Source: an uncultured Alphaproteobacteria bacterium | GTDB taxonomy: Bacteria > Pseudomonadota > Alphaproteobacteria > Rs-D84 | Length of the DNA stretch: 64,000 bases | NCBI GenBank assembly: GCA_944392595.1 | Contig: CALXXD010000001.1 | Span: forward strand, 3,008-67,007 | Direction: 5' to 3' | Shown: piece after piece, positions 4,467 to 45,409 of the stretch | How positions within the stretch are numbered: position 1 is the stretch's first letter | Layout of the letters: every line of letters begins with the position of its first letter | Made by a program: the position numbers and the translations under genes | Notes under the pieces: generated by a model | The model's input: only the letters and a program-made list of their open reading frames with translations | The model's database searches: none | What the model was told of the DNA's origin: nothing

Positions 4467-4468
4467 CA

Positions 4469-4914: not shown

Positions 4915-4938
4915 TCCCCGGATATAAGGAGTTTAATT

Positions 4939-5205
4939 ATGGCACATAAGAAAGCAGGTTCGGCAACCACCAATGGACGCGATTCCGCGGGACGTCGTTT
5001 GGGCGTAAAAAAATCCGGTGGCAGCCGTGTTATCGCCGGCAACATCATTATTCGCCAACGTGGAACGGCGGTTCATCCCGGCCTGAACGTCGGTATGGGC
5101 AAAGACCACACACTGTTCGCGAAAATTGCGGGCGTTGTGAAATTCAAACGTGGTCTGGGCGATCGGAAAACAGTTTCCGTCATACCAGAAGACGAAGCGA
5201 AATAA
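4939..5205 (+). CDS. rpmA: 50S ribosomal protein L27
   Basis: [28 protein letters not shown]... is a canonical L27 N-terminus. An AAGGAG RBS is present. Confidence 0.95.
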
Positions 5206-5230
5206 AAAACGGGGCATCGCCCCGTTTTTT
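5205..5230 (+). terminator. Intrinsic terminator after rpmA
   Basis: aaaaaacggggc-atc-gccccgtttttt. Confidence 0.8.
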
Positions 5231-5599: not shown

Positions 5600-5627
5600 A
5601 AACGCCCCGGTGGGGCGTTTTTTTTAT
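5599..5627. terminator. Bidirectional terminator hairpin (serves the 870-aa gene on the minus strand)
   Basis: aaaacgcccc-ggt-ggggcgtttttttt overlaps the stop codon at 5624. Confidence 0.7.
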
Positions 5628-12863: not shown

Positions 12864-12891
12864 AAAACAACCGCCACGTGGGCGGTTTTTT
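12863..12891. terminator. Bidirectional terminator between tsaC-like and the GmrSD-like gene
   Basis: aaaaaacaaccgcc-acgt-gggcggtttttt. Confidence 0.7.
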
Positions 12892-15013
12892 ATTTCAAAT
12901 TTATACTCAAATCGCTTTCATCTATTCCCAGATAATCAAACCAAATTTTAATGGCACCAAGCAAAGAATCCGCCGATTTGTTTACACGAAAATATATATT
13001 TTCATAGGGATACAATAATTGTTCCCAAAATCGTTCGCCATGCTGACCGATGTTTTCTTCTTTCTTGGATACAATATCTTTGAACCTTCCATCATTTCCA
13101 TGCGCAAATGCTTTACGCATTTTTATCTTGTATTGGTCATTTGCGTATAAAGTTTCTATAACTCTGGCATATAAATCTTTCCAAGATTTTACCTCTATAT
13201 CTGTATCCAATAATGAAAAATTAAAACTTTGCGGTTTACGATTTGTAATAATTTCTTTCAAAGAATCATTATCAAGTGCCACTGTTTCAATATCGCGCGC
13301 ATTTGCATATGAATGCATTGGTTTATATACAGGCCAAAGTTTCAAAATATCTGAGGATAATTTTTTACCACGTTCAATGATTTCATGCTCTGTCCAGGTG
13401 TCTATGTCGCGCATATAATGATTCAGGTATAAAGCAGAATCATTGAATCCGTTTTTCATAAGTTTTTTTTGCTGAAATGAACGATTACTGAATTCCGAAT
13501 TATACCCCGTAAGTGTCAAATTTCCTATTGTATTCAAATACGTCTTGTGTATATTTTCCCAATTTTCTCCCAAATCGTGTCGCCACTCATTCGTTAGTGT
13601 CTGGGGCATAATGTGTTCCAACGTCAATCTTATTGGGTCCACGTTTTCTTTGGGGTTATAAAACTGTTCTATTTTTAGCAAAATGTATTTACATGTCGCT
13701 TGATTACTTGTATAAACGTCATTCCTACGCAATGCGTCTATGAATTCGCCATCATCTGGGAACCTTTGTGGTGATGAATCTGAATATATCAAGAACTTAA
13801 ATACGTCTGCATACGATGCATTACAATCTGATTTCAATATAGAATCTATTTTTTTATTCATCAGAATCGATTTGTTTGCACCAGCAGTTGTTAATCGACA
13901 AAGTTTTCTGCGTATAAAATAACTCTCTATAACTTTCATTATTTCCATGACATCTTGCGCGCCCAATTTTTGATGTGAATATTTCATAAACACATCCAAC
14001 AATAATGGAATTACAGCACCAAACTCTATTCCATCCCGTAAATCTGTAAGCTTGTCATTTATCTCTTTATTATCTGTCTGTTTGGTTTTTATTTGAAAAT
14101 AAATTTCTGAATAATCATGCAGTTCTTTTAATATATCTTCTGGTTTATCGGTTGGTCGTTTATATTCCTTGAAACTTTTATATACATCTGGCAACGCACT
14201 TTTTTTGTTGGTTTTGCATGCCAAAAAATTCCAAATATAAGTAGTTGTATCATTAGAACTGGTGCCTGCGTTTTCTTCTATTGGTTCCCAATAACGCGAA
14301 TACAATCTTTCTTGTTCTTCATAATCCAAACCAATTAAAATAAAATTTCTTATTTTATCGGCATCACTTAAATCTAACCCCTTGGAGTTCAGTGATTCAA
14401 ATACTAACTGGGGGTTGTCATCATTATCGCCCAAGCCAATATCAACAATCTCTAACTGCTGAACTGCCTTATATATATCGCCAATATTTTCTGGTGTTAA
14501 TTGTGATTTGAAAAAATTATAGTTGATAATTATGTTATTCTTGTCATATTTGCTTGTGTTTGAACCATCTATCAAGGACTGATACGCTTCCATATCACCG
14601 CGAATAAGTTTTAATTTAATTTTGTTTTTATTCTTGTAATCCAAACACAGGCTCATTATCTCGTCAACGAGCGGAATGTTGTATGAATTATCAGCATCTT
14701 TATTCTTTTGAATAACATCATTAAATTCTTTTGCCTTATTGCCTATGGCCAATAATAATAATGAAACCGTTGTCAATCTTTGTTGACCGTCTATGACAAT
14801 CAAATCATCAGTATTTTTATCACGAACACTGACAATAGAACCAAAAAAGTGTGGCTTGTTATTGCCTTGTTTTATTATATATTCCAAATCATCCCATAAT
14901 GTCTGACATTGTTCTTTCTTTTTCCAATTATAATTTCTTTGATAAACCGGTATCATAAAACGTTTATCTTTGCCGTGCATAAACTCGGTGATTTTTTTTG
15001 ATTGTGCGCGCAT
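12890..15013 (-). CDS. GmrSD-family type IV (modification-dependent) restriction endonuclease, DUF262 + DUF1524 fusion
   Basis: The N-terminal DUF262 motifs are FMIPVYQRNYNW and VIDGQQRLTT. The C-terminal DUF1524 His-Me finger motifs are LEHIMPQTL ... NTIGNLTLTG. A CAGGAG RBS is present. The gene is conspicuously more AT-rich than its neighbours. Confidence 0.8.
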   Translation of the reverse strand: MRAQSKKITEFMHGKDKRFMIPVYQRNYNWKKKEQCQTLWDDLEYIIKQGNNKPHFFGSIVSVRDKNTDDLIVIDGQQRLTTVSLLLLAIGNKAKEFNDVIQKNKDADNSYNIPLVDEIMSLCLDYKNKNKIKLKLIRGDMEAYQSLIDGSNTSKYDKNNIIINYNFFKSQLTPENIGDIYKAVQQLEIVDIGLGDNDDNPQLVFESLNSKGLDLSDADKIRNFILIGLDYEEQERLYSRYWEPIEENAGTSSNDTTTYIWNFLACKTNKKSALPDVYKSFKEYKRPTDKPEDILKELHDYSEIYFQIKTKQTDNKEINDKLTDLRDGIEFGAVIPLLLDVFMKYSHQKLGAQDVMEIMKVIESYFIRRKLCRLTTAGANKSILMNKKIDSILKSDCNASYADVFKFLIYSDSSPQRFPDDGEFIDALRRNDVYTSNQATCKYILLKIEQFYNPKENVDPIRLTLEHIMPQTLTNEWRHDLGENWENIHKTYLNTIGNLTLTGYNSEFSNRSFQQKKLMKNGFNDSALYLNHYMRDIDTWTEHEIIERGKKLSSDILKLWPVYKPMHSYANARDIETVALDNDSLKEIITNRKPQSFNFSLLDTDIEVKSWKDLYARVIETLYANDQYKIKMRKAFAHGNDGRFKDIVSKKEENIGQHGERFWEQLLYPYENIYFRVNKSADSLLGAIKIWFDYLGIDESDLSINLK

Positions 15014-22543: not shown

Positions 22544-22620
22544 TGGTGGGTCAGGAAGAACTCGAATCTTCGACCTCCGCTGTATCAGAGCGGCATTCTA
22601 ACCAACTGAACTACTGACCC
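22544..22620 (-). tRNA. tRNA-Ile (anticodon GAT), CCA encoded
   Basis: The reverse complement GGGTCAGTAGTTCAGTTGGTTAGAATGCCGCTCTGATACAGCGGAGGTCGAAGATTCGAGTTCTTCCTGACCCACCA folds as a 7/4/5/5 cloverleaf with anticodon loop CTGATAC. Confidence 0.95.
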
Positions 22621-24931: not shown

Positions 24932-25852
24932 GAGTTACTGGTTACTCGTAACTCGTTACTCGTGTTTCACCCTTCGCCAGGGCTTCGGGTGGCAAGCCCC
25001 ACCCCCCGTCGCGCGGAGCGCGCCACCCCCCGCCCGGGATCCACCCACGTAAACTTTGTTTGCGCGGGGCCCGGTGTGGGGCGGTGGGCATTGGTCGTTC
25101 TCGTCACGGGGGTGTGTTGCCCACGATATGGGCGGTGGGTAACAGACCACCCCGCCCAAACCACCCACGAAAAATTGCATTTTCGTGGGGCCCGGTATCG
25201 CGGCACCCCTCCGCAGAGGGGAACTTTATTCCGCAACGATACGAGCCAAGTTCCCCTCCGTTGGAGGGGTGGCGGCTTGCCACCGGGGTGGTAAGAGAGT
25301 GCGGATTTATCCACTTACTCTCTTGTCATTCCCGCGCAGGCGGGAATAGGGCTTGGATTGTTATTAGTTATTTAATTTGGGAAGTTTATTCAGTGTTGTA
25401 TTTTCATCCACCCGCAATCCGCGGCACAATTTAATAGACCCTATTCCCCCCTTATCCACCCCACAAATACATTCGTATTTGCGGGGGCCCGGGTGCGGGA
25501 ATGACAAGAGTTGTGTGTGCTTGGGCACTTAGTCCCCTTTGTCATCGCGAGGGAGTGAAACGACCGTGGCGATCCAGTAAATAAAAAAGCATTGCGGGCA
25601 TTCGCCCGCAGACATATTGCACTGGATTGCCACAGTCGTACGACAACGTTTTCAACGTTTCGCGCTCCTTCGCAATGACAGTGGAGTTACTGGTTACTAG
25701 TTACTCGTAACTCGTATCCCCACCCCCCGTCGCGCGGAGCGCGACACCCCCCGCCGGAGGCGGTGGGCATTGGCGTGCTCTCGTCACGGGGATATCTTGC
25801 CCACGATATGGGCGATCTGTCACGAGTAACTAGTAACGAGTTACGAGTAACT
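24932..25852. repeat. Mosaic palindromic repeat cluster D (largest; includes a Neisseria dRS3-like attcccgcgcaggcgggaat unit)
   Basis: Built from the same modules as clusters A-C, some in inverted orientation. The 135-nt gtcattgcg... module appears as its reverse complement at about 25540-25680. The cluster is bounded by GTTACTCGT-type arrays. Confidence 0.85.
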
Positions 25853-25882
25853 AAAAAAACGGGGCGGGGCCCCGTTTTTTTT
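25853..25882 (-). terminator. Intrinsic terminator of the 1100-aa gene
   Basis: aaaaaaacggggc-gg-ggccccgtttttttt abuts the stop at 25881. Confidence 0.7.
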
Positions 25883-28800
25883 ACTGTAATGTTATGCTTA
25901 ATATATCACCATACTGTCCGGCTTCTTCTGCGCCGATGTAACACTTGATATGGCTGCCGACCTTGTTCATAAATTCTTCATAGGCGTCTTTTTCTGCTGC
26001 ATCCAGGTTAGACTGCTGGATATCGCGTGTGGCTTTATTCACCAACAATCCACCCGCAGTACCCAATACAACCGTGCCAAGCGCAGACCACACAGGTGTC
26101 AGGTCTTTCTTTTCTTTTTCTTCGCCATCAACCGCATTCAGAGCAACCTGCAAATCATCCAGTGCGGTAATTGCAGACTTCTTGGATGATTCAAGTGCCT
26201 TTTCAACATTTGTATTGTTGTAACCTTTCAAACCAGCGCATTTAGTACTACAGTAGGTATTACCTTTTATTCTGGTTGTGCCATACTCTATATTGCACTG
26301 ACACTCTTGGATATCTTCCGTAGAATCGATATGATCCTGCATGTCTCTGGTAAAGCTCTTTACTGCCCTTGATGCTGTATCTATAAATGCAATATTTGCA
26401 TTTGACTTTTTAGCATTGCTTTCTAAAGAACCCATATACACGTCGATGCTATCGATATCTGCCTCGTCAATATCTTCTACATCTTGCCCCAAATAGCCTT
26501 TTATTCTGGTAATGAACGTGGCGACATCTTTTGCGTCAAACGGTTCTGCTTCTTTCTTGTTATTCAGGCCGGTTAATTTACCGAACACTGAACCATCTGC
26601 GATGCCGGCACCCAAGTATGCACCACCCAGGCCGCCACCAACGGTGCCCAACAATGTTGTCCAGAATTCCGTTCTGCCCTGGCGTGCACGCATATCGGCG
26701 GTTGCGTCGTCCGCAACACTTTGGGCGATATCTTCCAAATCGTCGGCTGGTATCCAACTGCCGCAGGTGAATGAATCACCAACCGCAAAGTACGCATTTG
26801 TCCAAGACGCGTCACGCATGGCTTCCTGGATATCCACATCGTCGGATTGGACGGTCACGCGCATTGCACAGAATGAACCATACAATTCGTTACTGGGGTC
26901 AAAATTATTGCGCGACAAACCATTTACGTTGTAATCGTTTGGCACACGATTATTTCTTAATTTCGCCCACATAAATGTGCTGCCTGTGTCATGGCCAGAC
27001 ATAATGCCGCCATTGTTCTGGGCCAAGCACATATTCTGTTCCTGGGTTAATTTGCTGTTGTATATGGCCTGGGCTTCTTTTTCCAAATCATATACCAATT
27101 CGCTGAACAGATTTTCCGCCGCCAGATTTTGTTGGTAAGCACTGCTGGATATATATATAGGTTCGTCATATATCGTACCATCGGCCGCCACAGTGTCACA
27201 CACACCCTGGGCACCATTATCGGCACGGCACAGCGCGTTACCATTTGCATCAGTCGCACGAACCTGGGTTCCATCTTCGACTGTCCCCAATTTAACAGAC
27301 GAGCCCGCATCCAACCAGCCTTGGCGTACGCTGGACGTGCCTTCACCCCAAGAAGATGTTAAGTTGCCGGGTTGAGAGCTGTTTAACTTTGCAATCTCGA
27401 TATCCAGGTGTTCTTGGCACGCATCGGCGTTCTTGACCGTATCCAGACACAATCCCAATACAATCGTGTAATCCAACACACCGCCGACTTTGTTCATGCT
27501 GTTATCGAATGACGCAGTACCAGTTTGCGTTAATGACGAATAAATATCCGTACGATTGCGATAGCAATTTGTATATTCGTCACCGCACATGGATTTCACG
27601 CAACTTTTCGCGACATTTTCACAACGTGTGCGCAATTGAGCAATTGCGGCGTCGCTGTAACTGGTGGAAAGCGATGCATTCAGCGATGCAACCACACCAA
27701 TCGGATCGTCGGAATTTGCACCATATACTGTGCCGGTGCTGCTGAATCCACCACTGGTAAGCCGCGGGAACAAAACATCGAATGCGCCGGTTTGGTTATA
27801 AGTATATACGTATCCACCAACATCGTCTGGGTTGGCCGCCGCATATTGACAATTCAGGTCTGTATTAACAATAGCCTCGCACCCTGTTTTGATTTGGTCA
27901 TAGGTTGCGCCGCCATTAATTGAATTATTGCCGTCTTGACTGAACACCAAAGCATAGCAAGACGCGCCGGAACCGCCACCACAAACACGCATCACACAGG
28001 ATGAAATCGTATCAGAGCAAGACGATTTTGCCGCAGAATCAAATTGCTGCATAGCATCGCTTATCTTGGCACGCATGGATGAATTCATACGGGCAGCATA
28101 GGCGTCGTCAAAAATCATTTCTTGGTTATCTGGGTCAGCCAACTGGGACGACGACGGCATTGCACCATTGCCCAAGAATGTCGCATAACAATATTTATTT
28201 GCACCAATTGTATCCAAACACGCATTTCTGATGTAACCTTGGGTCTCGGAATTGCTGAATGTATCGGACAATTCCAATAAATCGTTTGCTGATAAATTCA
28301 AATCGCCCGAATTAATTGCGTCCGCCAGATATGCAACGTATCTGGATGAACCACTGATACATTTATATGGATTGGCCGCACATGCGTTCAAGATACACTG
28401 ATCCGCAACCTTGTAACATGTGGAAACGGCATTCACCGCCGCCAAGGCCGCGCCTTCGTCAATCATAACGCCAACACGGCTGTCCGATGTGGGGTTATTT
28501 GCGTTCATAGCAGAACCGAACAGTTCAATTTTGCCCTCGGCCGCGCAACGCGCCAATGTGGAATCGCAATAAACACGCTGTTTTCTGAATTCATTGGTTG
28601 TTGTGCATAATTCAAATTCAGCACCGCAAACATTATCACGCTGCAAACATGTTGTATAACGACGCACACAGTCACCGGTGCTGTACATATTCGCAATTGC
28701 GGCACCAGTAATCATTTGCCCCATAACACTGCCCGCGGTGGGGTATGTGTATTCTGTAACCTCGCCATGTTCGTTCTGAGTTTTGATATTGGACAAAGCG

Positions 28801-29183
28801 GTCGTCGAAGAAGTACCGAACAAATCATTTATGCCCGATGCAGTACATTGCGCCAATACACTTAAACATTTTGGCATTTGCGCATGGAATAAAACGTTGT
28901 TTGTGCATTCTTCGAAATTCGGCCCGCACGCATCAGATGAACTGATACAATCCGTATATGCATCGATACATTCGGCATTATCCAACAAACTGGACGATGT
29001 TGTGGTTGTGCCAACCACACTGGTCGTGCCGGTTAAATACGATGTCATTGTCGGCAAACGACGCGACGCAGTCGTCGCGGGATTCACAACGCCCGGACGC
29101 GCAGTCAATGCATAGGCCGCAGGCACAACACTGCAAACAGCCAGAAATCCAACGATTTTGTTCAGAATTTTCATTCGACTCAC
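25881..29183 (-). CDS. Very large cysteine-rich secreted/membrane-anchored protein (1100 aa)
   Basis: A GGAG RBS and signal peptide MSRMKILNKIVGFLAVCSVVPAAYA|LT are present. A duplicated about 55-aa Cys motif occurs (C..Y..C.....CG..FE.CT...C...LA.C...G...LFG). Two Gly-rich hydrophobic segments lie near the C-terminus (FWTTLLGTVGGGLGGAYLGAGIA and PVWSALGTVVLGTAGGLLV). Confidence 0.7.
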   Translation of the reverse strand: MSRMKILNKIVGFLAVCSVVPAAYALTARPGVVNPATTASRRLPTMTSYLTGTTSVVGTTTTSSSLLDNAECIDAYTDCISSSDACGPNFEECTNNVLFHAQMPKCLSVLAQCTASGINDLFGTSSTTALSNIKTQNEHGEVTEYTYPTAGSVMGQMITGAAIANMYSTGDCVRRYTTCLQRDNVCGAEFELCTTTNEFRKQRVYCDSTLARCAAEGKIELFGSAMNANNPTSDSRVGVMIDEGAALAAVNAVSTCYKVADQCILNACAANPYKCISGSSRYVAYLADAINSGDLNLSANDLLELSDTFSNSETQGYIRNACLDTIGANKYCYATFLGNGAMPSSSQLADPDNQEMIFDDAYAARMNSSMRAKISDAMQQFDSAAKSSCSDTISSCVMRVCGGGSGASCYALVFSQDGNNSINGGATYDQIKTGCEAIVNTDLNCQYAAANPDDVGGYVYTYNQTGAFDVLFPRLTSGGFSSTGTVYGANSDDPIGVVASLNASLSTSYSDAAIAQLRTRCENVAKSCVKSMCGDEYTNCYRNRTDIYSSLTQTGTASFDNSMNKVGGVLDYTIVLGLCLDTVKNADACQEHLDIEIAKLNSSQPGNLTSSWGEGTSSVRQGWLDAGSSVKLGTVEDGTQVRATDANGNALCRADNGAQGVCDTVAADGTIYDEPIYISSSAYQQNLAAENLFSELVYDLEKEAQAIYNSKLTQEQNMCLAQNNGGIMSGHDTGSTFMWAKLRNNRVPNDYNVNGLSRNNFDPSNELYGSFCAMRVTVQSDDVDIQEAMRDASWTNAYFAVGDSFTCGSWIPADDLEDIAQSVADDATADMRARQGRTEFWTTLLGTVGGGLGGAYLGAGIADGSVFGKLTGLNNKKEAEPFDAKDVATFITRIKGYLGQDVEDIDEADIDSIDVYMGSLESNAKKSNANIAFIDTASRAVKSFTRDMQDHIDSTEDIQECQCNIEYGTTRIKGNTYCSTKCAGLKGYNNTNVEKALESSKKSAITALDDLQVALNAVDGEEKEKKDLTPVWSALGTVVLGTAGGLLVNKATRDIQQSNLDAAEKDAYEEFMNKVGSHIKCYIGAEEAGQYGDILSITLQ

Positions 29184-29267
29184 TCCATACTTATTGCTTT
29201 AAGTATAACATAAAATCATATTCTGACAAAGGAAAAATGTATGATTTTTTATGAAATTTGAAACAGT

Positions 29268-30227
29268 TTATCCAATTTCGTCCAATATGGATTTTAATTC
29301 ATACATATCGGCGGGTAATTTTGCCTTGAAATGCAAATTTTCGCCCGTGACCGGATGCGTAAAATCCAAAATTTCTGCATGCAGCATTTGCCCATCGTGA
29401 TTTTTCAAAAATTCCAGTAAATCAGCATCCCGGACGGTCGCCAACCGATTTGATGTGCGTCCGTATAACGGGTCACACAGCACTGGAAAACCATGCGCAG
29501 ATAAATGCACACGTATCTGATGTGTGCGGCCGGTCATCAGGGTGCATCTGAATTCAGAAACCCCCGCACGCGGCCACACGGTTGATACATTTACAATCGT
29601 ATGCGCGGGCTTGCCACCCGATTTAACCAAACTCATTTTTTGCCGATTTCGCGAAGACCGCGCCAAATTTCCCGTTATATCCGCACCGTCCCAATTCGGA
29701 ACACCCCATACAAAGGCAATATATTTACGTGTTAAATCGTGGGATGAAAATATTTTTACCAATCCGCGAAATGCCGCGTCTGATTTCGCGAACACCATAA
29801 CGCCACTGGTATCTTTGTCCAAACGATGAACAACGCCCGGCCGTGTTACCCCGCCCAAAGACGACAGATGTGTATGCGCCAATATATTTTGAACCAATGT
29901 CCCCGTTTTATTGCCTGCCGACGGATACATCACCACGCCACGCGGTTTGTTGATTACAATAATGTCGTCGTCTTCGAATAAAATATCCAAATCAAAATCG
30001 CGGGATATATTATCCGCGGCAACATCCGACGTTTTTTCAGGTATAACCACAGATACCACATCGCCCACGCGCAGGCGCGCCCCCAATTTGGTCGGCGCGT
30101 TATTTAATGTAATTTCCATACGCTGGATTTCAGAACGCGAAAATTCAGGCATCTGGTTGGATAAAAATTTATCCAGGCGCAAATTTGCGTCTGTATCGGT
30201 CACGGAAAATTTACGAATATCGGTCAT
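29268..30227 (-). CDS. rluD: RluA-family 23S rRNA pseudouridine synthase (RluD/RluC-like)
   Basis: An S4-like N-terminus (RLDKFLS...) is followed by the catalytic motif HRLDKDTSGVMVFAKSD. The assignment to D rather than C is uncertain. Confidence 0.8.
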   Translation of the reverse strand: MTDIRKFSVTDTDANLRLDKFLSNQMPEFSRSEIQRMEITLNNAPTKLGARLRVGDVVSVVIPEKTSDVAADNISRDFDLDILFEDDDIIVINKPRGVVMYPSAGNKTGTLVQNILAHTHLSSLGGVTRPGVVHRLDKDTSGVMVFAKSDAAFRGLVKIFSSHDLTRKYIAFVWGVPNWDGADITGNLARSSRNRQKMSLVKSGGKPAHTIVNVSTVWPRAGVSEFRCTLMTGRTHQIRVHLSAHGFPVLCDPLYGRTSNRLATVRDADLLEFLKNHDGQMLHAEILDFTHPVTGENLHFKAKLPADMYELKSILDEIG

Positions 30228-30229
30228 GA

Positions 30230-30712
30230 TTATCTATATTCGTCCCAATCGGGGCCCTTTTCACAATCAGCCAAATCAATTGTTAATTCACGGCCGTTTG
30301 ATTCAACCGGGCATGTCAAGATACCTGTACTTTGTTCGTCATCTGCATCGCGCGTGGCGTTAAGCCACGTGAATTTTATTTCTGTCGGCGCATACAGGCA
30401 CGCAAGGCGCAATTCGCCACTGTGCGTGTTGCGCGGACCAATCCATACACGTACGCCTTCGCCCAGGCCATAGCATGGAAACCCATCCAAATAATACAGC
30501 ACCAATCCACGCCCCACCAAATTCGATGATGGAATGAATTCACCGCGATATTCAGAATAACGCAAACCTGTTAAAGCCTGCCAATCTGTGCTGGTGGAAA
30601 AAATACTGATGCGCGGGGCGGGCGCGGGCGTATTCCCAGATCCTGAATCAGCCGCGAACGCCATATTTATCGTTACCGCACATAATGCAAATATCATCAG
30701 TATGCGTTTCAT
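30230..30712 (-). CDS. Hypothetical secreted protein (160 aa)
   Basis: Signal peptide MKRILMIFALCAVTINMAFA|AD. The gene is tightly packed (0-2 nt gaps) between the zinc-ribbon gene and rluD. Confidence 0.55.
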   Translation of the reverse strand: MKRILMIFALCAVTINMAFAADSGSGNTPAPAPRISIFSTSTDWQALTGLRYSEYRGEFIPSSNLVGRGLVLYYLDGFPCYGLGEGVRVWIGPRNTHSGELRLACLYAPTEIKFTWLNATRDADDEQSTGILTCPVESNGRELTIDLADCEKGPDWDEYR

Positions 30713-31225
30713 TTAATCCCCCTGGGTTTCCAATTCCACAGATATTTTATCAACGTTATCAATCGGTACGGACAATGTATGCCGAAAATTCGCCGACGCA
30801 CCCGCATCCAATAATGTCGCAGGCGGTAAAAAACGTTGGCGTGCGACAATGTTGCCGGCCGCATCATACGAAATCACAACCAACCCCGGCACGCCATAAA
30901 TCTGGGACGAACGATTAACCACACGGCCATCAACAACAAATTGCGATGTGCCGTTTTCTTCGTCTGATTCAATGGATATATCGTCCAATTGAGCCACCAA
31001 TGGATGATTCTGGATTTCAGTCACGCGATGCTGATACATAACCGCAAACGCAAACACCGCCGCCGCCAACAACGCACACAGTGCCGCAATGAATACCAAA
31101 ATCGGGCTGCGACGTGTCTGGCGCGGGATGGTCCATGTATGCCCGCATACCGCACATTTCACAGGCCCCGTCGGCGCGGCGTCCAACGAATATTCTGTTT
31201 TACAAAAATCACATACTGTCTTCAT
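30713..31225 (-). CDS. Zinc-ribbon (MJ0042-type) + TM + DUF3426-like membrane protein, ZitP-like architecture
   Basis: MKTVCDFCKTEYSLD...VKCAVCGHTWTI has two CxxC pairs. A TM helix follows (ILVFIAALCALLAAAVFAFAVMY), then a beta-rich C-terminal domain. The start at M7 (31225) is preferred over 31243. Confidence 0.55.
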   Translation of the reverse strand: MKTVCDFCKTEYSLDAAPTGPVKCAVCGHTWTIPRQTRRSPILVFIAALCALLAAAVFAFAVMYQHRVTEIQNHPLVAQLDDISIESDEENGTSQFVVDGRVVNRSSQIYGVPGLVVISYDAAGNIVARQRFLPPATLLDAGASANFRHTLSVPIDNVDKISVELETQGD

Positions 31226-31244
31226 ACCCCGTTTATACCACAAT

Positions 31245-32567
31245 TTATTCCAAATTCAACATTCGATATTTTGCACGCACCACGGATTGAATTTCCAAAA
31301 TAGCGTTCATGTAATCAGATACTGTCGCATTTTTATTCGCAACCACTGCGCCAAATATACGCCCCGCGTCCGTATCAGATGCGTTTTCGTTATACACCGC
31401 CAATTCCGCCATATCCGTCAATTCACGCAATGACACGTCAAAAAAGTTCGCAACATTGGCATTCAAATCCCAAAAATACGACGGGTTGGTGGAATCTTCG
31501 ATTCTGTCGCTGACATATAAACTGGGGGTAATAGATCCCGCAAATCCAACAGTCACAAACATGGCGGTTATCGTGCCTGCCGTCATATCCAGCGATCTGT
31601 TTATATCCAATATCGCGGGACCGGTTGAATTTGAATTAACCGACAGACCAGACAAAGTCATATTCGATACCCATAAATCCCCAGTTGTTACACTGGTAAA
31701 TTTTCCTGTGTCGGCCAAATTAAAATTTTTCATAACCTCGATTGTTCTGGAATCAGACGACAATATGCCCGACACGGTCGCACTTTTAACCGTCAGCGCA
31801 TCGTCCAATGTGGTGCGATTTTGAAATATCACATCGTCCGCAATCGTTGCACCCGCAATCAAAGTGTCCGACAACTGAACCGTTGATGCGTCGAAAAACG
31901 TGGCGTTTGTTATATCATGACCGCCCAAATTAAGTCCTGATAACATCATCGCATCGGACGCGTTGTCCGTTGGAACACGATACAAATATAATGCATTATC
32001 ACGATTAACGGATGTTGTTTCAACTATGCCGTCTGTGACGTTTATTCCCAAATCAATTGTGTCTGCGCGCCATGCGCCAAATGTTCCATACGCGCGATTG
32101 CCCTGGATAAATCCCATATTATCACCACCCAGCGCCACAATTTCACGCGTGCGCATGGGCGTGATTTCATCAGACGAAAAAACTATTATCCCCTGTAACG
32201 TGGCGCGATCTTCGATATCATTTGATTTCAAAATGCGCAATTGGTATTTATCGCCGGCCGCCGCCAAATCAGGCGACAATCCATATTCCGCCAAATCTGA
32301 TATATTCACGCGCGTTATATTGCGACCAACTGTGTTTAATAATTTTTCACGATTATCAAAAATATATCTTTCCAGTGTCTCGTTTATATCCGACATCTCA
32401 TGCGTGATGGCGATATTTTCAGCGCGCTGGACAACACTTTGTTGATACCGAAAAATAAACGGCATAATGATGGCGGCCAAAGCGACACTCATTAATAATT
32501 CGACCAACATAGAACCACGTTGATTGAATTTTTCGTCTGTAAAGATTTTCGTTCCAAATCGTTTCAT
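31245..32567 (-). CDS. Giant prepilin-like protein 3 (PilV/tail-fibre-like motif)
   Basis: Leader MKRFGTKIFTDEKFNQRG|SMLVELLMSVALAAII has Gly at -1 and Glu at +5. The internal motif is LYLYRVPTDNASDAMMLSGLNLGGHDITNA. The start at 32567 gives an ATGA overlap with the upstream stop. Confidence 0.55.
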   Translation of the reverse strand: MKRFGTKIFTDEKFNQRGSMLVELLMSVALAAIIMPFIFRYQQSVVQRAENIAITHEMSDINETLERYIFDNREKLLNTVGRNITRVNISDLAEYGLSPDLAAAGDKYQLRILKSNDIEDRATLQGIIVFSSDEITPMRTREIVALGGDNMGFIQGNRAYGTFGAWRADTIDLGINVTDGIVETTSVNRDNALYLYRVPTDNASDAMMLSGLNLGGHDITNATFFDASTVQLSDTLIAGATIADDVIFQNRTTLDDALTVKSATVSGILSSDSRTIEVMKNFNLADTGKFTSVTTGDLWVSNMTLSGLSVNSNSTGPAILDINRSLDMTAGTITAMFVTVGFAGSITPSLYVSDRIEDSTNPSYFWDLNANVANFFDVSLRELTDMAELAVYNENASDTDAGRIFGAVVANKNATVSDYMNAILEIQSVVRAKYRMLNLE

Positions 32568-33769
32568 TGTTGTGTTTCCACAGGCATCGCATTTTGCCAA
32601 TCAGCCGACATAATAACCCCAAATTCCCCCGCATCAACCGATGGCGGTACATCCGCCCTTTGCAGGTTTAATTCCGAAAATCGCGGTGGCGTGTATGATG
32701 GAAAAGTCCAATTGCCGATACGAATGGGGATTTCTGATGACATTAATAATTCGCCCGATACAGTCAAACCAAAATTTTCATAGAAAATAATTTCTTCGGT
32801 CGAAATATAAGACGTTAAAACAGTGTGCGCGTTTATACCTGTAAAACCGCTGATTGTGCGGGTTGAATCTGTTTTTAATGTTAAATTATTTCCAACATTG
32901 ACAGAATATAATACATCCGCGCGATCCGCAATTATACGACCAGATGTCGAATATCCGCGCCCATTCATTGTATCTGCGTAAATATTTCGAAAGCCCGACA
33001 CATCGCCAGTAACACGCATTTTTTCAAATGCAGCCGCCTCGCCATCCAAATTCGCACCCGATGAAAAATACAATGTTTGCGCAGTCAAATACGGCGTTTC
33101 AATAAATGGTGCAGACATATTTCTGATTTCTGCGGACGTGGCATTAATACCGCCAACATCATATACACGATTATTATTCATATCCAAATCACGCATCATC
33201 GTGTTCAGATTTTCCTCGCCCATTTCTGTGCGATGCAGATATTTTGATTTATCTTCGCCATCTGCGTCACGCGAAATGCGATATATTAAATCACCGGGTT
33301 TGAAATCAGGCGCCGCCACCGCAAACATCCGACCATACGCAATGCCATCGTTACCAACAACTGCGGCATCAACACCAATGTGGCGCGCAATCTGGGCAAC
33401 ACGCAAATCAGTATCATTCAAATCAAACGCCAAATATACATCGGTTATGGTTGCGCCATTTACCGTATATTTATCAATAAATCCAGACGTTGGCATATCG
33501 GATATTTCATCCAATTCTTCGTCTGATAATCTGATTTGCGCCACATCAGGCCAAGCATCTTGATTTAATCGCACAAAATTCATAACAGGCCCGCGCAATT
33601 CAATAATCTTGTTCGCGGTTGCAATATCGCGCAATGTGTTATTGGTATCTGAAATCTGGCTGTATAAAAAAGGTGCAGCCATGGCAACAATCGCCAACGC
33701 CAATAATACTTCCAACATACTGGCGCCGGATTCAGAATGCATAAAAAACTTTGTTTTACATGCAACCAC
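32564..33769 (-). CDS. Giant prepilin-like protein 2 (PilV/tail-fibre-like motif)
   Basis: ...MHSESG|ASMLEVLLALAIVAMAAPF has Glu at +5. The internal motif is KYLHRTEMGEENLNTMMRDLDMNNNRVYDVGGINA. The true start may be M10 (33742). Confidence 0.55.
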   Translation of the reverse strand: MVACKTKFFMHSESGASMLEVLLALAIVAMAAPFLYSQISDTNNTLRDIATANKIIELRGPVMNFVRLNQDAWPDVAQIRLSDEELDEISDMPTSGFIDKYTVNGATITDVYLAFDLNDTDLRVAQIARHIGVDAAVVGNDGIAYGRMFAVAAPDFKPGDLIYRISRDADGEDKSKYLHRTEMGEENLNTMMRDLDMNNNRVYDVGGINATSAEIRNMSAPFIETPYLTAQTLYFSSGANLDGEAAAFEKMRVTGDVSGFRNIYADTMNGRGYSTSGRIIADRADVLYSVNVGNNLTLKTDSTRTISGFTGINAHTVLTSYISTEEIIFYENFGLTVSGELLMSSEIPIRIGNWTFPSYTPPRFSELNLQRADVPPSVDAGEFGVIMSADWQNAMPVETQQ

Positions 33770-35126
33770 TGCGGCCCTCCAACAAACATTGCTTTATATC
33801 AATTCTTTTTTCCAAACGCTGCCAAAATACATATTGGCATATTATGTATTGAGATAAAGATTTTGCGTTATAACGAACGATGTTGTTGAATCCGTTAATT
33901 ATGTCGCGGCAATTTAATACCTTGTCACCATCATCCGACGGTCGATTTATGATTTTGAACCCGTCATTGTTTATCGTTTCCAATAATACGTCCGGCAACA
34001 CAGATGTCCCAGCCGGTCGAATATCAAATATAACCTGGCCTGTTTCGCCATTATTTAACGCATCGGATGTTTGGTCGCGCATTGTGATATTCGACGCGAT
34101 AACAGTCCCCGCATTAATACCACTGCGCGTTGAAACACTGTCGTCATCATCTGGGTCAAGATAAACATCTTGCCCGCGGGACGCATCAATATAAGATTGC
34201 ACATCCAAACGTTCGACACTGAAATTAATATTTTCGCTGATTAGGTCACCACCGACATTCCATTCCAGTGGGCCAGTAAAACTGTTACGGCCGGCGGTCA
34301 TGGCGAAATCATATACAGATACTGTATTCGATGTAAAATTGCCCGTATCACCAAACATAGATACTGTGCGCGCAGAAATATCACCAACATACAACGACCC
34401 ACGCGTGACAGACAAAGCCGCTTCGCCCAGATTACTTTGAAACACGGCCAAATCCGCCCCCATCGCATCAATTGTACTGCGTACGCGACGCCCGTCTTCA
34501 ACCCCATACAAAGACAAAGTTTTAAACTGTGCAGTGTCAAAATCTGCATTGTTTGCGAATATATCACCGCCATTTCTGAATGAAAAATCACCCATATCCA
34601 AATCAGTTAAAAACGCGTTGCCGTCCAAATCATACTCGTTTCTGCGCACAACGTCTGAATATTCAGAATCCAGCGCAAGCCCAACCAAAATCTCATCACC
34701 CGACACTGTCGCATAAAATCCAATCCGACGCGCCAGTTCGGCCAACTGGACCATTGATAAATCACCACCTGATAATCTTAAATGCGCGCTGACCGCGACG
34801 GGTGTTTTATTGACGACCAACGATATATCTTGCCCCAATGCAGTACGCGGAACAAAACCCAATGGCAAACCATACGATTCCAGCACATCAGAAAACGCAT
34901 CCCCAGACACAACCGTTGTATTATAAGGCAAACTGTTCGCGTTCGTGCGAATAAAAATACGCGCGGCGGTTTGCGCTGTTTCTATTTTTTGTGTTGTGGC
35001 ATACATTTGGGAATCCATATCGCGCGCAGCCAACCGCCCCGCAAAAAACGGGATAAATGAAAATATCAGCGTCAAAGCCAATAACGCCTGTAATAAAAAA
35101 TTTCCATATTGATGTTGGTGTGGCAA
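33756..35126 (-). CDS. Giant prepilin-like protein 1
   Basis: AGGAGGGGG RBS, 9 nt, then a TTG start give the short leader MPHQHQYG|NFLLQALLALTLIF, with Gln at +5. The internal motif is FLTDLDMGDFSFRNGGDIFANNA. The ATG at 35183 in the ORF track has no RBS. Confidence 0.5.
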   Translation of the reverse strand: MPHQHQYGNFLLQALLALTLIFSFIPFFAGRLAARDMDSQMYATTQKIETAQTAARIFIRTNANSLPYNTTVVSGDAFSDVLESYGLPLGFVPRTALGQDISLVVNKTPVAVSAHLRLSGGDLSMVQLAELARRIGFYATVSGDEILVGLALDSEYSDVVRRNEYDLDGNAFLTDLDMGDFSFRNGGDIFANNADFDTAQFKTLSLYGVEDGRRVRSTIDAMGADLAVFQSNLGEAALSVTRGSLYVGDISARTVSMFGDTGNFTSNTVSVYDFAMTAGRNSFTGPLEWNVGGDLISENINFSVERLDVQSYIDASRGQDVYLDPDDDDSVSTRSGINAGTVIASNITMRDQTSDALNNGETGQVIFDIRPAGTSVLPDVLLETINNDGFKIINRPSDDGDKVLNCRDIINGFNNIVRYNAKSLSQYIICQYVFWQRLEKRIDIKQCLLEGRSGCM

Positions 35127-35284
35127 TTCAGGATTCCCCCTCCTACACCACGAAATGATAGCAATTGAAAAAAGATATTGCAATCGATTTTAAGATACGT
35201 TAATATCCGTTACGTGTAAGCGCAACAGTTAAAATTGTTGCAGAATATTTCCTGTATAAAAATAACAAAATAAAAAAAACGAAT

Positions 35285-35602
35285 ATGCAAAACAAAAAAA
35301 ATCAATCGTCTGTTGGGCTGATGATTCAGCGTTGCCACAAGTGGCGTCAAAAAAGAAAACAATATATGGATCAGGCACGGCAAACATCCGATGAAATCGA
35401 ACGCGAACGCTTGATGCAGGCGGCCGAACATTACGGACGTATCGTTAATGCAGAACAGGGTAAAATTGATTCAACACGTACCCCTGGTGAAAAAGCAATT
35501 GTTGCCGATGAAGCAAACGACGCGACTGACACAACCGATGTCAATGATACCGCGGACGAAGACGAAGTCGCATTGCCCGATTTTATTACGGCCGATAAAT
35601 AA
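35285..35602 (+). CDS. DUF4167-like small protein
   Basis: A basic N-terminus is followed by ...LMQAAEHYGRIVNAEQ, which resembles the QHAEHYxRI signature of alphaproteobacterial DUF4167 proteins. The tail is acidic. Confidence 0.4.
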   Translation: MQNKKNQSSVGLMIQRCHKWRQKRKQYMDQARQTSDEIERERLMQAAEHYGRIVNAEQGKIDSTRTPGEKAIVADEANDATDTTDVNDTADEDEVALPDFITADK

Positions 35603-35682
35603 TTTTTATGTGCGGACACGCACTTTAATCCTTGAATTTTTACTGTGTTTTGCTATGCTTGCCCCAAAAGGAAGTTTGACAC

Positions 35683-37215
35683 ATGGACAGCAATTACACA
35701 GTTTTGGCGCGGAAATATCGCAGTCAGGATTTCAAATCTTTAATCGGCCAAGATGTTTTGGTTAAAACTTTGACCACTGCAATCAACACAGGCCGCATTG
35801 CGCACGCATATATTTTTACTGGAATTCGCGGGACTGGGAAAACCAGTACTGCGCGTATTTTGGCCAAGGCTTTGAATTGTTTATCATCCGATGGGCCAAC
35901 CGCAAATCCATGCGGTGTGTGCGAAAATTGTCGCGCAATTGCCGCGGGACAACATATCGACGTTATGGAAATCGACGCCGCTTCACACACGGGTGTTGAT
36001 AATATGCGCGATATATTGGACGCCGCGCAATATCGCCCAACAAATGGCCGGTACAAGGTTTATATCATCGACGAAGTTCATATGTTATCCACCAGCGCAT
36101 TTAATGCGTTGCTGAAAACGTTGGAAGAACCACCAGAACACGTTATATTCATTTTGGCAACAACTGAAATTCGTAAAGTGCCCGTCACAATATTGTCACG
36201 TTGCCAACGCTTTGATTTGGTGCGCGTGCCGGTCGAAACATTAAAAAAACATTTTGCATGGATTGCATCCCAGGAAAACATCGAATTATCCGATGGCGCG
36301 AACGAGTTGCTGGCCCGTGCGGCCGACGGTTCTGTGCGCGATGGGTTATCTTTGTTGGACCAAGCAATCGCGCAAACGGGCGGACATGTTGATGAAAAAT
36401 CCGTTTTGGAAATGTTAAAGCGTGCCGACCGCGGTGTTGTTGTTGGATTTATGGAAACTTTGCTGTCTGGTGATGTATCGACCGCGTTGGCAAAATCGGA
36501 CGAGATTTATAATAATGGTGCTGATTTATCAATGTTACTGACCGATATGATGGAATGGACGCATTGGGCAACACGTATGCATCCTGCGATTCGTGCGGGC
36601 AATATTGATACTGTGCCATACACCGCGGACCAGCGCGAACAAATTCAAAAAATAAATTCGCGCGTGTCGTTAAATACCCTGTCCCGTATATGGCAGGTTA
36701 TGGTCGCCGCAGTACCTGAAATGCAGGCGTCCGCCAATCAAAAGCAATGTTTTGATATGTTAATTGTGCGACTGATGCATATTGCAGAAATGCCGTCTGT
36801 GCCGGAAATATTGGAAAAACAAAAATCAACCACACCCCAAACCGCGCCCCAAAAAACGCCCGAGCCCACCGTTGCGCAAAAATTATCAATCACAAGCGCA
36901 AATGATTTGGCAAATGCGTTGCAATCGTCCAAGGAAATTTTACTTTACTCTTATTACACAAGTAACCTGGAGGTTACAGAAATATCCGACGGCGTGATAA
37001 AATATTTTGACCGGCGTGGGGATGCAGACTTTGCGCATAAATTGGCAACGTGGCTGGAAAATAAAACGGGGCACGCATGGCAATTACAGCGCGAAACAGA
37101 ATCGCCGCACAAGCAAACCGTTACGGAACAAAAGAAAGAAGAACTGGAATCAGACCCGTTGGTCGCAAGTGCAATGGATTTGTTTGCCGATGCGGAAATC
37201 GTTGGCGTTAAATAA
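35683..37215 (+). CDS. dnaX: DNA polymerase III subunit gamma/tau
   Basis: YRSQDFKSLIGQD..., Walker A GIRGTGKTSTARILAK, zinc module CGVCENCRAI, IIDEVHMLS and SRCQRFDL. Confidence 0.95.
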   Translation: MDSNYTVLARKYRSQDFKSLIGQDVLVKTLTTAINTGRIAHAYIFTGIRGTGKTSTARILAKALNCLSSDGPTANPCGVCENCRAIAAGQHIDVMEIDAASHTGVDNMRDILDAAQYRPTNGRYKVYIIDEVHMLSTSAFNALLKTLEEPPEHVIFILATTEIRKVPVTILSRCQRFDLVRVPVETLKKHFAWIASQENIELSDGANELLARAADGSVRDGLSLLDQAIAQTGGHVDEKSVLEMLKRADRGVVVGFMETLLSGDVSTALAKSDEIYNNGADLSMLLTDMMEWTHWATRMHPAIRAGNIDTVPYTADQREQIQKINSRVSLNTLSRIWQVMVAAVPEMQASANQKQCFDMLIVRLMHIAEMPSVPEILEKQKSTTPQTAPQKTPEPTVAQKLSITSANDLANALQSSKEILLYSYYTSNLEVTEISDGVIKYFDRRGDADFAHKLATWLENKTGHAWQLQRETESPHKQTVTEQKKEELESDPLVASAMDLFADAEIVGVK

Positions 37216-37230: not shown

Positions 37231-37692
37231 ATGATTACTGAACGCGGTGCATCCATGATTGAAATTATCGGCGTGTTGGCAATTGCTGGATTGATGAGTG
37301 CGGCCGCCATTGGCATGTACAATACGATTCGCAATAACCAGGCGCGCAAAATCGCATCCACGCAAATGGACGAAATTGTGCGTAATACAAAAATGCTGAT
37401 GGATATGCAGGGCGATTACAGTGGCGTGTCGGTTGGTTATTTAATATCTGCGGGCGCGTTGGATAATGCAAATCCACCAATTGGTGGTGACGCGTGGTCT
37501 GTTACGCCGAACTTTGACGGGACGGGGTTTGCCATTAATTTGACTGAATTAAGCAGCGGCGAATGCGAATATTTTGCGACCACACGTCCCGATTGGGCAA
37601 CACGTGTTGTGATTAATGGTTCTGATTATACGGGCAAAAATCCAAATTGTTTTTCGTCTGATATTAACCAGATTTCTTTCTTTGTGGAATAA
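37231..37692 (+). CDS. Type IV pilin (prepilin-type N-terminus, C-terminal disulfide loop)
   Basis: MITERG|ASMIEIIGVLAIAGLMSAAAIGMY has Gly at -1 and Glu at +5. Two Cys residues near the C-terminus (SGECEY...NPNCFSS) are typical of the pilin D-region. The GGGGGA RBS lies 16 nt after the dnaX stop. Confidence 0.7.
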   Translation: MITERGASMIEIIGVLAIAGLMSAAAIGMYNTIRNNQARKIASTQMDEIVRNTKMLMDMQGDYSGVSVGYLISAGALDNANPPIGGDAWSVTPNFDGTGFAINLTELSSGECEYFATTRPDWATRVVINGSDYTGKNPNCFSSDINQISFFVE

Positions 37693-43186: not shown

Positions 43187-45409
43187 ATGGTCGAAAAGTT
43201 CAAGATTTTATCCGCCGGTGGCAAAGGCAAAGGACTGAATATATTCAAATCGTCCGCGTATAAAGAAAGCCTGCGCACGCCAATGGCGTCGTTGTTTTGG
43301 TCACTGCGATGGGCGGTGGGGATTTGGTTGGTATGCGCAATCGCGTTTGGATTATCGTTTTGGATTGAACATATTTGGCGATACGGTTGGTCGCCCGCCA
43401 CGGTGCAATGGACCACGCTGTATTTTCAAAATATGCTGACCAGTGGTGGGATGTCCATTTTGGCCGAGGTTCCGGCCTGGTTCATGCGCAGTTTGTTGCG
43501 GACTGATATTATGTGCATAACGCCGCTGTTGCCGATTATCGCATATTATTTTATGGCGGACAGTACTTTGATAAAAGAATTCAACCCATACGGCAACGAT
43601 AAATTTGATGATAAATCGTCCAACAAAGCATCCAAAGAAGACATCGAAAAAATGGGGCTGTTAAAGGGCTTTATGATGGTGTTGGGATATTTCAAGAAAA
43701 AACCACTGATGATGAACGAATGTTTGTCCGCACTGTGCGTTGCGCCCCCGGGGACTGGTAAATCCCAAGGTGTTGTGTTTCCGACAATTTTTGAGTGCAA
43801 TACCGTGTCGATGATTATTAACGACCCAAAACCTGAATTGTATCAACAATCGTCCGCATATCGTGCGACAATCGGACCTGTGTTTATCATGAACTGGGCG
43901 GGTCAGGATGACCCAGAACGCGGCATATATTATCCATCGTGGAATCCGCTGTCGCCCGAACACGTGCCATCCAACCAAGAACAACGCGATTTGTATATCG
44001 ATTCTATGTGCAATGTGTTGATTTCGGATAAAGAGGCTTCATCCGCTGACCCGCACTGGACAATATCTGGGCGCGCGGCTTTGTCTGGGTTGATTCAATT
44101 TATGGTGTCCAAGGTTGAACGTGCCAAGGCCGACGATTATTTTTATTCACGCATAACGTCTGGGGCTTTTGATGCCGAAGATGCGGCCGTGTTGGGGGAT
44201 TATTATCTGTCTATGATGAGTGACCCGAACGCATACGCCGCATACGCAATGTTACAGCGCAATGAATTAAACGCCATGAATTATGTACATGTCGGTACGT
44301 GGGATAAAATCCCAGACGCATGGCGCGGACGTGAAGCGTCTTTGTCCATGATTTTGGACTGGATTAACAGCAGTCAAATTTCCCAGGCGCAACAAATCGA
44401 CGAACGTCGGCGGGCGGGCGATCAAATGGCTGCTTTGGCCGACCCGATGTATGATTTGTTTATGGGGGCGGTGGATGAAGCACGTCAATATGCGTATGCT
44501 CACCGCGCCATTTTGGAATTAACACAATTGGCAAACACACCCGATAAAGAACGTGGTTCAATCTTATCCACCGTGATGGAGGGATTGTCCATATTCCGTA
44601 ATGCCGCCGTGCGTAATCGCACAAGTCATTCTGATTTCCACTTTGCGGATTTGCGCGGAATGACCGATCCACGCGATGGCAAAGTAAAGCCGGTTACGGT
44701 ATATCTGTCGATTAACATGGTTGATGCCCAGGCGTTAAATCCAATTACGGGAATATTTATCGAACTGATGACTAATTTCTTGCTGTCCAATCCGCCGGAA
44801 TCCAAGAACGGCAATGTACGCATGGGGCCATGTCCTGTGTTGTTTGTGTTGGACGAAATGCCCAAAATGCAGAAGTTACAGGCCGTGATCCAGGGACCCG
44901 ATTTGGGGCGTGGGCAAAAGATTTCATACCTGATTATTGGCCAGGATATTCACCAGATTCAGGAAAAATACGGTGCAGATGCCGCTGCCACGATTATTTC
45001 CACAACCGCCGCAAAAATTGTTATGCGTCAAAATGATCCTGATACCGCACAGCGATTTTCCGATATGATGGGCAAAAAAATAAAAATTAAAACCGTCAAA
45101 GGCCCCGATGGGAAAGAAGTCGAAGAAAAATCCGAAGAACCACTGTTCAGCCCGATGGACATTATGAAATTGGATCACAAAAAACAATTGGTTATATTCC
45201 AGGGTTGGTACCACCGCCCAATCGAGGCTGATAAACAATTTGCGTTTGAAGACCCGCGGTTATCCAAATTTATGGCCATGGGGGCGTGCAGCCCATTGCC
45301 TGAATTTTTAATCCCGTCGCACCATGCGGCGTTGGGGTACAGTGGCAACCCACGGATATATATCCCCCAAACACAAGAAACCAAGGAATTAGAGCCTGTG
45401 AAAAAATAG
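43187..45409 (+). CDS. virD4: Type IV secretion coupling protein, VirD4/TraG family
   Basis: N-terminal TM helices, Walker A VAPPGTGKSQGVVFPT, Walker B VLFVLDEMPKM and the conserved IIGQDIHQIQEKYG block. Confidence 0.85.
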   Translation: MVEKFKILSAGGKGKGLNIFKSSAYKESLRTPMASLFWSLRWAVGIWLVCAIAFGLSFWIEHIWRYGWSPATVQWTTLYFQNMLTSGGMSILAEVPAWFMRSLLRTDIMCITPLLPIIAYYFMADSTLIKEFNPYGNDKFDDKSSNKASKEDIEKMGLLKGFMMVLGYFKKKPLMMNECLSALCVAPPGTGKSQGVVFPTIFECNTVSMIINDPKPELYQQSSAYRATIGPVFIMNWAGQDDPERGIYYPSWNPLSPEHVPSNQEQRDLYIDSMCNVLISDKEASSADPHWTISGRAALSGLIQFMVSKVERAKADDYFYSRITSGAFDAEDAAVLGDYYLSMMSDPNAYAAYAMLQRNELNAMNYVHVGTWDKIPDAWRGREASLSMILDWINSSQISQAQQIDERRRAGDQMAALADPMYDLFMGAVDEARQYAYAHRAILELTQLANTPDKERGSILSTVMEGLSIFRNAAVRNRTSHSDFHFADLRGMTDPRDGKVKPVTVYLSINMVDAQALNPITGIFIELMTNFLLSNPPESKNGNVRMGPCPVLFVLDEMPKMQKLQAVIQGPDLGRGQKISYLIIGQDIHQIQEKYGADAAATIISTTAAKIVMRQNDPDTAQRFSDMMGKKIKIKTVKGPDGKEVEEKSEEPLFSPMDIMKLDHKKQLVIFQGWYHRPIEADKQFAFEDPRLSKFMAMGACSPLPEFLIPSHHAALGYSGNPRIYIPQTQETKELEPVKK

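Follow-up and report, generated by a model that had tools for sequence, protein, structure and literature searches.

Type IV filaments start from a trimeric tip, formed either by heterotrimers of the GspIJK or PilIJK type or, in type IVb pili, by a homotrimer of CofB (PMC13533445). CofB and TcpB, from the colonization factor antigen III (CFA/III) and toxin-coregulated pilus (TCP) systems, are large type IVb minor pilins in which a pilin domain is followed by extra C-terminal domains; a study cited in PMC9045228 places CofB at the pilus tip, and another, cited in PMC13533445, reports a CofB trimer that suggests a mechanism of pilus assembly. In the GspI-GspJ-GspK, PilI-J-K (PilV-W-X) and CpaK-J-L systems, three minor pilins or pseudopilins encoded in tandem form a heterotrimeric tip, and one of the three lacks Glu5. 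The PilV proteins of thin pili (Pfam family Shufflon_N, PF04917), found on IncI1, IncI2 and IncK plasmids and on integrative conjugative elements (ICEs), as in R64, TP114 and PAPI-1, act as adhesins through their C-terminal domain, and their C-termini set recipient specificity in R64 and TP114 (PMC9045228). Here, we describe a 64-kb stretch of contig CALXXD010000001.1 from Candidatus Enterousia (order Rs-D84), called the window throughout, which carries three tandem genes, A, B and C, whose products are, as judged from their sequence profiles, true distant homologues of PilV. What is new is a chromosomal, triplicated, shufflon-free module of the PilV family in genome-reduced gut Alphaproteobacteria. 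We put at roughly even odds (about 0.5) the reading that A, B and C are anciently diverged paralogues of this family, large type IVb minor pilins that form one hetero-oligomeric tip or initiation complex and do not serve as alternative tips.

The three genes lie on the minus strand in the order A (33756-35126, 456 amino acids), B (32564-33769, 401 amino acids) and C (31245-32567, 440 amino acids). Gene A starts from a TTG codon at 35126 and has a Shine-Dalgarno sequence, AGGAGG, ten bases before it; the overlap between A and B is 14 nt long, and the stop codon of B overlaps the start codon of C in ATGA, which confirms the three consecutive, overlapping open reading frames (ORFs) described in a first-pass annotation of this DNA. 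Each product matches the PilV profile and opens like a prepilin, with leaders reading MPHQHQYG|NFLLQ in A, ...SESG|ASMLEVLL in B and ...NQRG|SMLVELL in C.

Profile and sequence searches agree on the relationship to PilV. When compared by hhalign with an alignment of seven bona fide Shufflon_N proteins, C matched at 98.7% (E 3e-16), B at 98.4% (E 6e-15) and A at 95.4% (E 1.8e-8), each match covering 208-240 columns from the N-terminal helix through the YLYR...LDM..N.I motif. BLASTP aligned C with a Ralstonia PilV across 244 residues (E 8e-8), and a tblastn search of 7.3 Gb of plasmid sequence with residues 1-246 of C matched 174 plasmid records, of which nearly every one bears a pilV annotation (lowest database-wide E 3e-6). 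Residues 1-240 of B gave seven weak tblastn matches among all PLSDB plasmids, five of them inside annotated pilV genes. An exhaustive hmmsearch of 1.84 billion representative proteins with the B profile found only 176; among 44 distant matches, nine carry Shufflon_N (best E 2.5e-35) and four N_methyl, with no other recurring family, and nearly all of them open with G|xxxxE leaders. The earlier proposal of prepilin-like, PilV-related proteins is thus backed by hhalign, BLASTP and tblastn alike.

The homologous part comprises the N-terminal ~220 residues and includes two conserved elements, AYG.FG.W and YL(Y/W/H)R-x7/8-LNxM-x3-(L/I)DM-xxNxIxN. On the minus strand of the window, the second element reads YLHRTEMGEENLNTMMRDLDMNNNRVYD in B (33158-33241), LYLYRVPTDNASDAMMLSGLNLGGHDITN in C (31905-31991) and, in degenerate form, VVRRNEYDLDGNAFLTDLDMGDFSFRNG in A (34569-34652). 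Its counterpart is present in the PilV of E. coli pDV45, so the PilV motif named in the first-pass annotation is genuine; the position given there, at the end of the constant region, was wrong, as it lies mid-protein in PilV, at about residues 190-218 of 415. The match spans approximately the first 200 of the 324 Shufflon_N model positions, similarity ends past the motif, and the rest of the constant region is unmatched. PilV and the trio also share a size of 400-490 residues, a prepilin leader, a pilin-like domain at the N-terminus that is joined to a distinct C-terminal one, and a PilS-family pilin encoded nearby. Unlike PilV, which is one gene with shuffled 3' ends, the trio consists of three full-length paralogues without an Rci recombinase or sfx repeats; its members are chromosomal core genes and not part of a mobile element, no pil operon accompanies them, PilQ, PilR, PilN and PilU are not adjacent, and the proteins are too divergent for the Pfam and NCBIfam models. 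In pDV45, integrase and shufflon segments come after pilV. Positions 29000-36000 of the window hold no repeated or inverted 19-bp-type sites and the window holds no recombinase, on which grounds a shufflon was rejected.

A resemblance to phage tail fibres, also suggested in the first-pass annotation, did not survive. At E<=0.1, PHROGs linked none of the three proteins to a tail family, and a tblastn search with B across 50,697 phage records returned one irrelevant match (E 9); a tail-fibre identity was rejected. The PilV motif matches only two fecal contigs titled 'UNVERIFIED Bacteriophage sp.', of which the one inspected (GenBank MT835540) encodes a bona fide PilV. This protein has 454 residues and the motif YLYR...LNTM...N.INN, and its gene directly follows one for an ATPase of the type II secretion system/type IV pilus type; the contig is probably a plasmid or ICE fragment and not a phage.

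Orthologue alignments show how the N-termini are conserved. Across 82-84 orthologues, Gly(-1) is invariant in A, B and C, and the +5 residue is Gln in A (74/74) and Glu in B (81/82) and C (84/84), which upholds the short Gly-ending leader, hydrophobic helix and Glu or Gln at +5 seen at first pass. In each protein, variability is highest in the leader that precedes this Gly, and an invariant Gly(-1)/Glu(+5) behind variable leaders is the pattern expected if cleavage and filament packing are under selection. A six-frame scan of the 64 kb with a regular expression (G-x4-[EQ] plus an uncharged hydrophobic stretch) singled out just four ORFs, namely A, B, C and a neighbouring gene for a 153-residue pilin; the positive controls, PilS and PilV of E. 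coli, were recovered by the same expression. In searches with single sequences, B has a sub-threshold match to Pfam N_methyl (13.7 bits against a cutoff of 21.2, E 0.048) and a weak match of its N-terminus to NCBIfam GspI (E 0.0032), and A and C have none in Pfam or NCBIfam.

Within the trio, paralogy holds for the N-terminal ~220 residues, where hhalign relates B to C at 97% (E 5.6e-11), A to B at 74% (E 2.8e-5) and A to C weakly (E 0.0046), and where both sequence blocks pointed out at first pass align properly in profile alignments of the three paralogues. It fails for the C-terminal halves, which show no mutual similarity by hhalign (all E>0.1), and self-BLAST finds no internal repeats in them, contrary to the repetitive, beta-helix-like sequence described at first pass. 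Each protein has a conserved C-terminal domain of its own, 190-260 residues long and unlike the other two; that of A includes four conserved Cys residues (406, 430, 447 and 455). These halves are conserved almost like the N-terminal domains, with majority fractions of 0.67-0.71 versus 0.71-0.745.

The A-B-C trio is a core, syntenic and translationally coupled module of the gut alphaproteobacterial order Rs-D84. The genes keep the same order and strand in 83 of 83 loci, at 53-87% identity. For every member of the trio, some 900-1100 homologues are detectable. They all lack a precomputed Pfam domain, and the few with names are called hypothetical or uncharacterized proteins. Relatives of B occur in 195 stretches of a one-genome-per-species collection, titled Candidatus Enterousia, uncultured Alphaproteobacteria or "Rickettsiales", and one of them sits in a closed metagenome-assembled genome (MAG) of 958,618 bp. 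Members of Enterousia and Rs-D84 are gut bacteria with genomes below about 1 Mb that lack respiration and most biosynthesis, and a dependence of Rs-D84 on partner organisms has been proposed (PMC12306168). An Enterousia-type A-B-C operon, with 56% identity to B, also occurs on a contig titled 'Bacteroides fragilis' (CAVGNU010000002.1), whose bin is probably mislabelled or contaminated.

More distant lineages, whose loci are labelled with L and a number, also carry trios. In L097 (485, 429 and 426 residues), the genes pair with A, B and C in order, and in L091 (GC 35%; 469, 455 and 489 residues), the profile that fits best is that of A for the first gene, that of B for the second and that of C for the third. 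L094 (GC 60%; 464, 435 and 469 residues) shows a clear pairing for B and C only, since the A profile lacks the strength to assign its first gene. Other uncultured bacteria encode giant PilV-like prepilins of 1083-1236 residues, among them a tandem trio of 1236, 1083 and 1188 residues (L098, 3551-14143).

How might three such proteins work together? In the proposed mechanism, a prepilin peptidase would cleave A, B and C after the invariant Gly, and the three would join, probably in a 1:1:1 ratio, into a hetero-oligomeric complex that initiates a thin pilus and provides adhesion at its tip, with a shaft built from the 153-residue pilin. A, whose +5 residue is Gln, would sit uppermost, as GspK or PilX does; this placement follows from the absence of Glu5 in the tip-most GspK/PilX class. 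The three differing C-terminal domains may jointly form a binding surface for partner or host cells, and such an attachment role would suit a genome below 1 Mb and a presumably partner-dependent lifestyle. An obligate multi-subunit set is favoured by the 83/83 gene order, the gene overlaps, the conserved C-terminal halves and the collinear trios in other lineages. CofB and TcpB offer a working analogy for the individual subunits; they are, in contrast to the trio, single genes forming homotrimers, and the B and C profiles detected no similarity to them among PDB sequences. The GspIJK-type sets resemble the trio in being three tandem genes with one member lacking Glu5, as A does in Rs-D84. Their subunits are mostly much smaller and come from different pilin families, whereas the trio derives from one PilV-like ancestor, with no homology to GspJ or GspK and GspI-like sequence at the N-terminus of B only.

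A candidate for the shaft is encoded nearby. The 153-residue protein (37231-37692, plus strand; leader MITERG|ASMIE) is a PilS-like type IV pilin with a six-residue leader; its Gly6 and Glu11 do not vary, and Cys112 and Cys140 are a conserved pair. Its profile matched a PF08805 (PilS) protein of a related MAG at E 1.5e-10; PilS_N was reached at E 0.015 and TcpA, marginally, at E 0.022. From these sequence features, we regard it as a candidate for the major pilin subunit. In most genomes, some 2 kb separate the gene from the trio, and in L126 and L146 the pilin and trio blocks have been re-joined in a different orientation by an inversion and are still adjacent.

Several observations weigh against the reading of A, B and C as a hetero-oligomeric pilus tip. 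The complex itself is inferred. No protein of the trio scores above threshold in Pfam, NCBIfam or PHROGs, the N_methyl and Shufflon_N models suggested for them at first pass included, and Shufflon_N gives no match to any of them at E<=1. AlphaFold2 monomers of B and C, likewise suggested and built from about 26 homologues each, have poor confidence, with a mean predicted local distance difference test (pLDDT) score of 52.5 for B and 46.2 for C and values below 50 in the C-terminal halves, and neither model has a Foldseek match in the PDB with E<0.2. The B model shows helices at 18-56 and 59-72 followed by strands, with a pLDDT of 65-85 at residues ~20-165 within its overall 52.5, so the pilin fold is only suggested. 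Profile searches against PDB sequences gave no more than marginal pilin matches (E 0.008-0.04), with nothing for B and only N-terminal pilin helices for C and for PilV itself; they turned up no solved structure of the PilV family. The placement of A on top is countered by L091 and L098, in which the first gene of the trio has Glu and not Gln at +5. One lineage has a single 1146-residue PilV-like gene instead of a trio (L093, 10001-13441), 3 kb from a PF08805 PilS pilin, and the pilin of L172 lacks a trio within a distance of 10 kb.

The missing assembly machinery belongs on the same side. Pfam, run on gene-like ORFs of >=130 residues and complemented by NCBIfam for unassigned large proteins, identified no pilus ATPase, platform protein, secretin, A24 prepilin peptidase or recombinase in the window, as the first-pass annotation had stated. 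Extending the search by 10 kb on each side (~84 kb in total) revealed no ATPase, platform protein, secretin or prepilin peptidase either, and a motif scan (GspE Walker A; A24 GGGDxK), which did pick up its positive controls on plasmids, showed no pilus machinery around the trio or pilin in 83 genome and 80 metagenome loci. A survey that includes Rs-D84 reported type IV pili for another lineage and not for this one (PMC12306168). The sequence searched amounts to ~9% of a 0.9-Mb genome, and the trio stands away from any machinery in every lineage examined, so the pilus genes may simply be scattered. It is also possible that the machinery is absent from the whole genome, which would overturn the pilus model.

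Could A, B and C instead be three alternative, full-length tip adhesins, each capping its own pili, for instance as a homotrimer, and providing three receptor specificities without a shufflon? This was the idea of hard-wired tip diversity put forward at first pass, and it has real attractions: a common PilV-like N-terminal domain joined to unrelated C-terminal domains mimics the outcome of a shufflon, PilV C-termini do decide recipient specificity in R64 and TP114, the giant paralogues of L098 all keep Glu at +5 and so look equivalent, and a single gene suffices in L093. We nevertheless consider it unlikely. Tight translational coupling points to joint expression, and the strict 1:1:1 retention and fixed order in 83/83 loci, together with collinear orthology in distant lineages, argue against interchangeable tips. 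The N-terminal domains are, moreover, deeply diverged (as between A and C), which is unexpected if only the binding domain must differ, the C-terminal domains show no raised variability, and the invariant non-Glu residue at +5 of A is typical of a specialised position in a complex. Ancient divergence with conservation of each member speaks for a joint tip complex over hard-wired alternatives.

A doubtful reading takes A, B and C out of any extended pilus: their N-termini would be uncleaved signal anchors that keep large surface or periplasmic proteins in the inner membrane, or else the proteins would belong to a short pseudopilus (endopilus) of a secretion-type machine. This would explain why no assembly machinery or prepilin peptidase appears in the ~84 kb and ~160 related loci searched, it would fit the drastic reduction of Rs-D84 genomes and the survey's silence on type IV pili there (PMC12306168), and the weak GspI-like N-terminus of B could be counted in its favour. 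Set against it are the invariant Gly(-1)/Glu(+5) with variable leaders, the presence of a conserved PilS-like pilin with a pilin disulfide pair, and the small fraction of the genome on which the absence of machinery rests. A decaying remnant of the thin-pilus (pil) operon of an integrated conjugative element, suggested by the typical occurrence of PilV on conjugative plasmids and ICEs and by a VirD4-type coupling protein gene 8 kb away, is very improbable and was rejected on conservation and synteny, since 83 genomes retain the ORFs intact, conserved and in synteny at 53-87% identity, housekeeping genes (an rRNA operon, dnaX and rluD) surround them, no integrase, repeats or compositional anomaly is seen, and the coupling protein gene is itself a core gene.

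The span that the first-pass annotation had taken for a three-gene operon (30230-35183) does contain the three genes, and it also holds two that were not mentioned, D and E, which complete a tightly packed run of five minus-strand genes, A-B-C-D-E. Gene D (30713-31243, minus strand; at most 176 residues) starts 1 nt past C on the same strand and encodes a putative zinc ribbon, one transmembrane helix and a putative DUF3426 region, matching TIGR02098 at 23.2 bits (cutoff 20.9) and, below the Pfam cutoffs, Zn_ribbon_4 (E 1.2e-5) and DUF3426 (E 2.7e-4). This predicted architecture resembles that of ZitP from Caulobacter crescentus, in which an N-terminal zinc ribbon and a single membrane-spanning helix are combined with a DUF3426 part in the periplasm; the latter is needed for polar pilus biogenesis in Caulobacter (PMC5182063). 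D differs from ZitP in its length (176 versus 311 residues) and in having Pfam matches below the gathering thresholds. Gene E (30230-30712, minus strand; 160 residues) adjoins D, with a stop-start overlap in L001, and is always paired with it; its product is secreted, with a Sec-type signal peptide, and has no family match. In L094, a D-E-rluD block stands apart from the trio, so that the functional tie of D to the trio is only suggestive, and whether D and E are members of the pilus system is uncertain. Directly 5' of A lies a promoter-like hexamer pair (35155-35183, minus strand), a consensus match only, of a kind that is not commoner here than in shuffled sequence.

Beyond E, the minus strand continues with rluD and then with a gene for an 1100-residue Cys-rich secreted protein (25881-29183) with hydrophobic C-terminal segments and no Pfam or NCBIfam match, which is kept in 71 loci, mostly downstream of rluD. 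The sole strong minus-strand terminator-like hairpin lies just 3' of this gene (25593-25610), so it may share a transcript with A-E. Upstream of A, the divergent genes encode a DUF4167 protein, DnaX and the 153-residue pilin, followed by an OmpA-like lipoprotein, ompH, lpxD and fabZ. The window is otherwise ordinary chromosome, with an rRNA operon, infB, nusA, mutS, lptD/F and a bamB-like gene. In the 16S-23S spacer (22544-22620, minus strand), tRNA-Ile(GAT) stands alone and tRNA-Ala was not detected. A GmrSD-type (type IV) restriction endonuclease is encoded at 12890-15013 (minus strand) in a stretch of ~39-40% GC, compared with ~46% for the window, and large conserved proteins of 799, 541, 663, 260, 299, 449 and 870 residues without a Pfam or NCBIfam family are encoded at 13-8236 and in L089 (3580-10004). 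A 313-residue protein encoded between der and the bamB-like gene (53353-54294, minus strand) carries the N-terminal domain of the phage T7 tail fibre (PF03906, E 2.6e-5; phrog_1640, E 2.4e-13). No further phage genes lie near it in this part of the core chromosome, and the arrangement is the same in L087 and L088. The coupling protein mentioned above is of the VirD4/TraG type (43187-45409, plus strand; 740 residues) and occurs in at least 29 Rs-D84 loci, with ~79-84% identity where the gene is fully covered; as a core gene, it implies that a type IV secretion system is encoded elsewhere.

The joint tip complex invites two bolder extensions. Tentatively, and with distinctly less confidence than in the complex itself, we can imagine that a PilV-derived A-B-C heterotrimer tips a type IVb-like pilus whose genes are scattered over the chromosome, that this pilus is the organelle by which the whole order attaches to partners or hosts and may work with a core VirD4-type type IV secretion system, and that the trio is an evolutionary intermediate between the homotrimeric CofB/TcpB and the heterotrimeric GspIJK/PilIJK arrangements. 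In a still more extreme version, a canonical prepilin peptidase and pilus motor would be missing from these genomes altogether, and some other machine would take charge of the proteins.

Finally, we would like to place the trio in the context of PilV biology. PilV adhesins are known almost only as plasmid-borne, shufflon-diversified stabilisers of mating pairs; here, the family appears as a triplicated, vertically inherited core module. Its hosts, Rs-D84 and Candidatus Enterousia, are an uncultured and abundant gut lineage, and the trio is a concrete candidate for the attachment of these bacteria to their partners. Trios of up to 1236, 1083 and 1188 residues in several lineages suggest a wider, so far unrecognised family of giant minor pilins. 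If the heteromeric tip holds true, it would connect the single large minor pilin of type IVb systems with the three-subunit tips of other type IV filaments.

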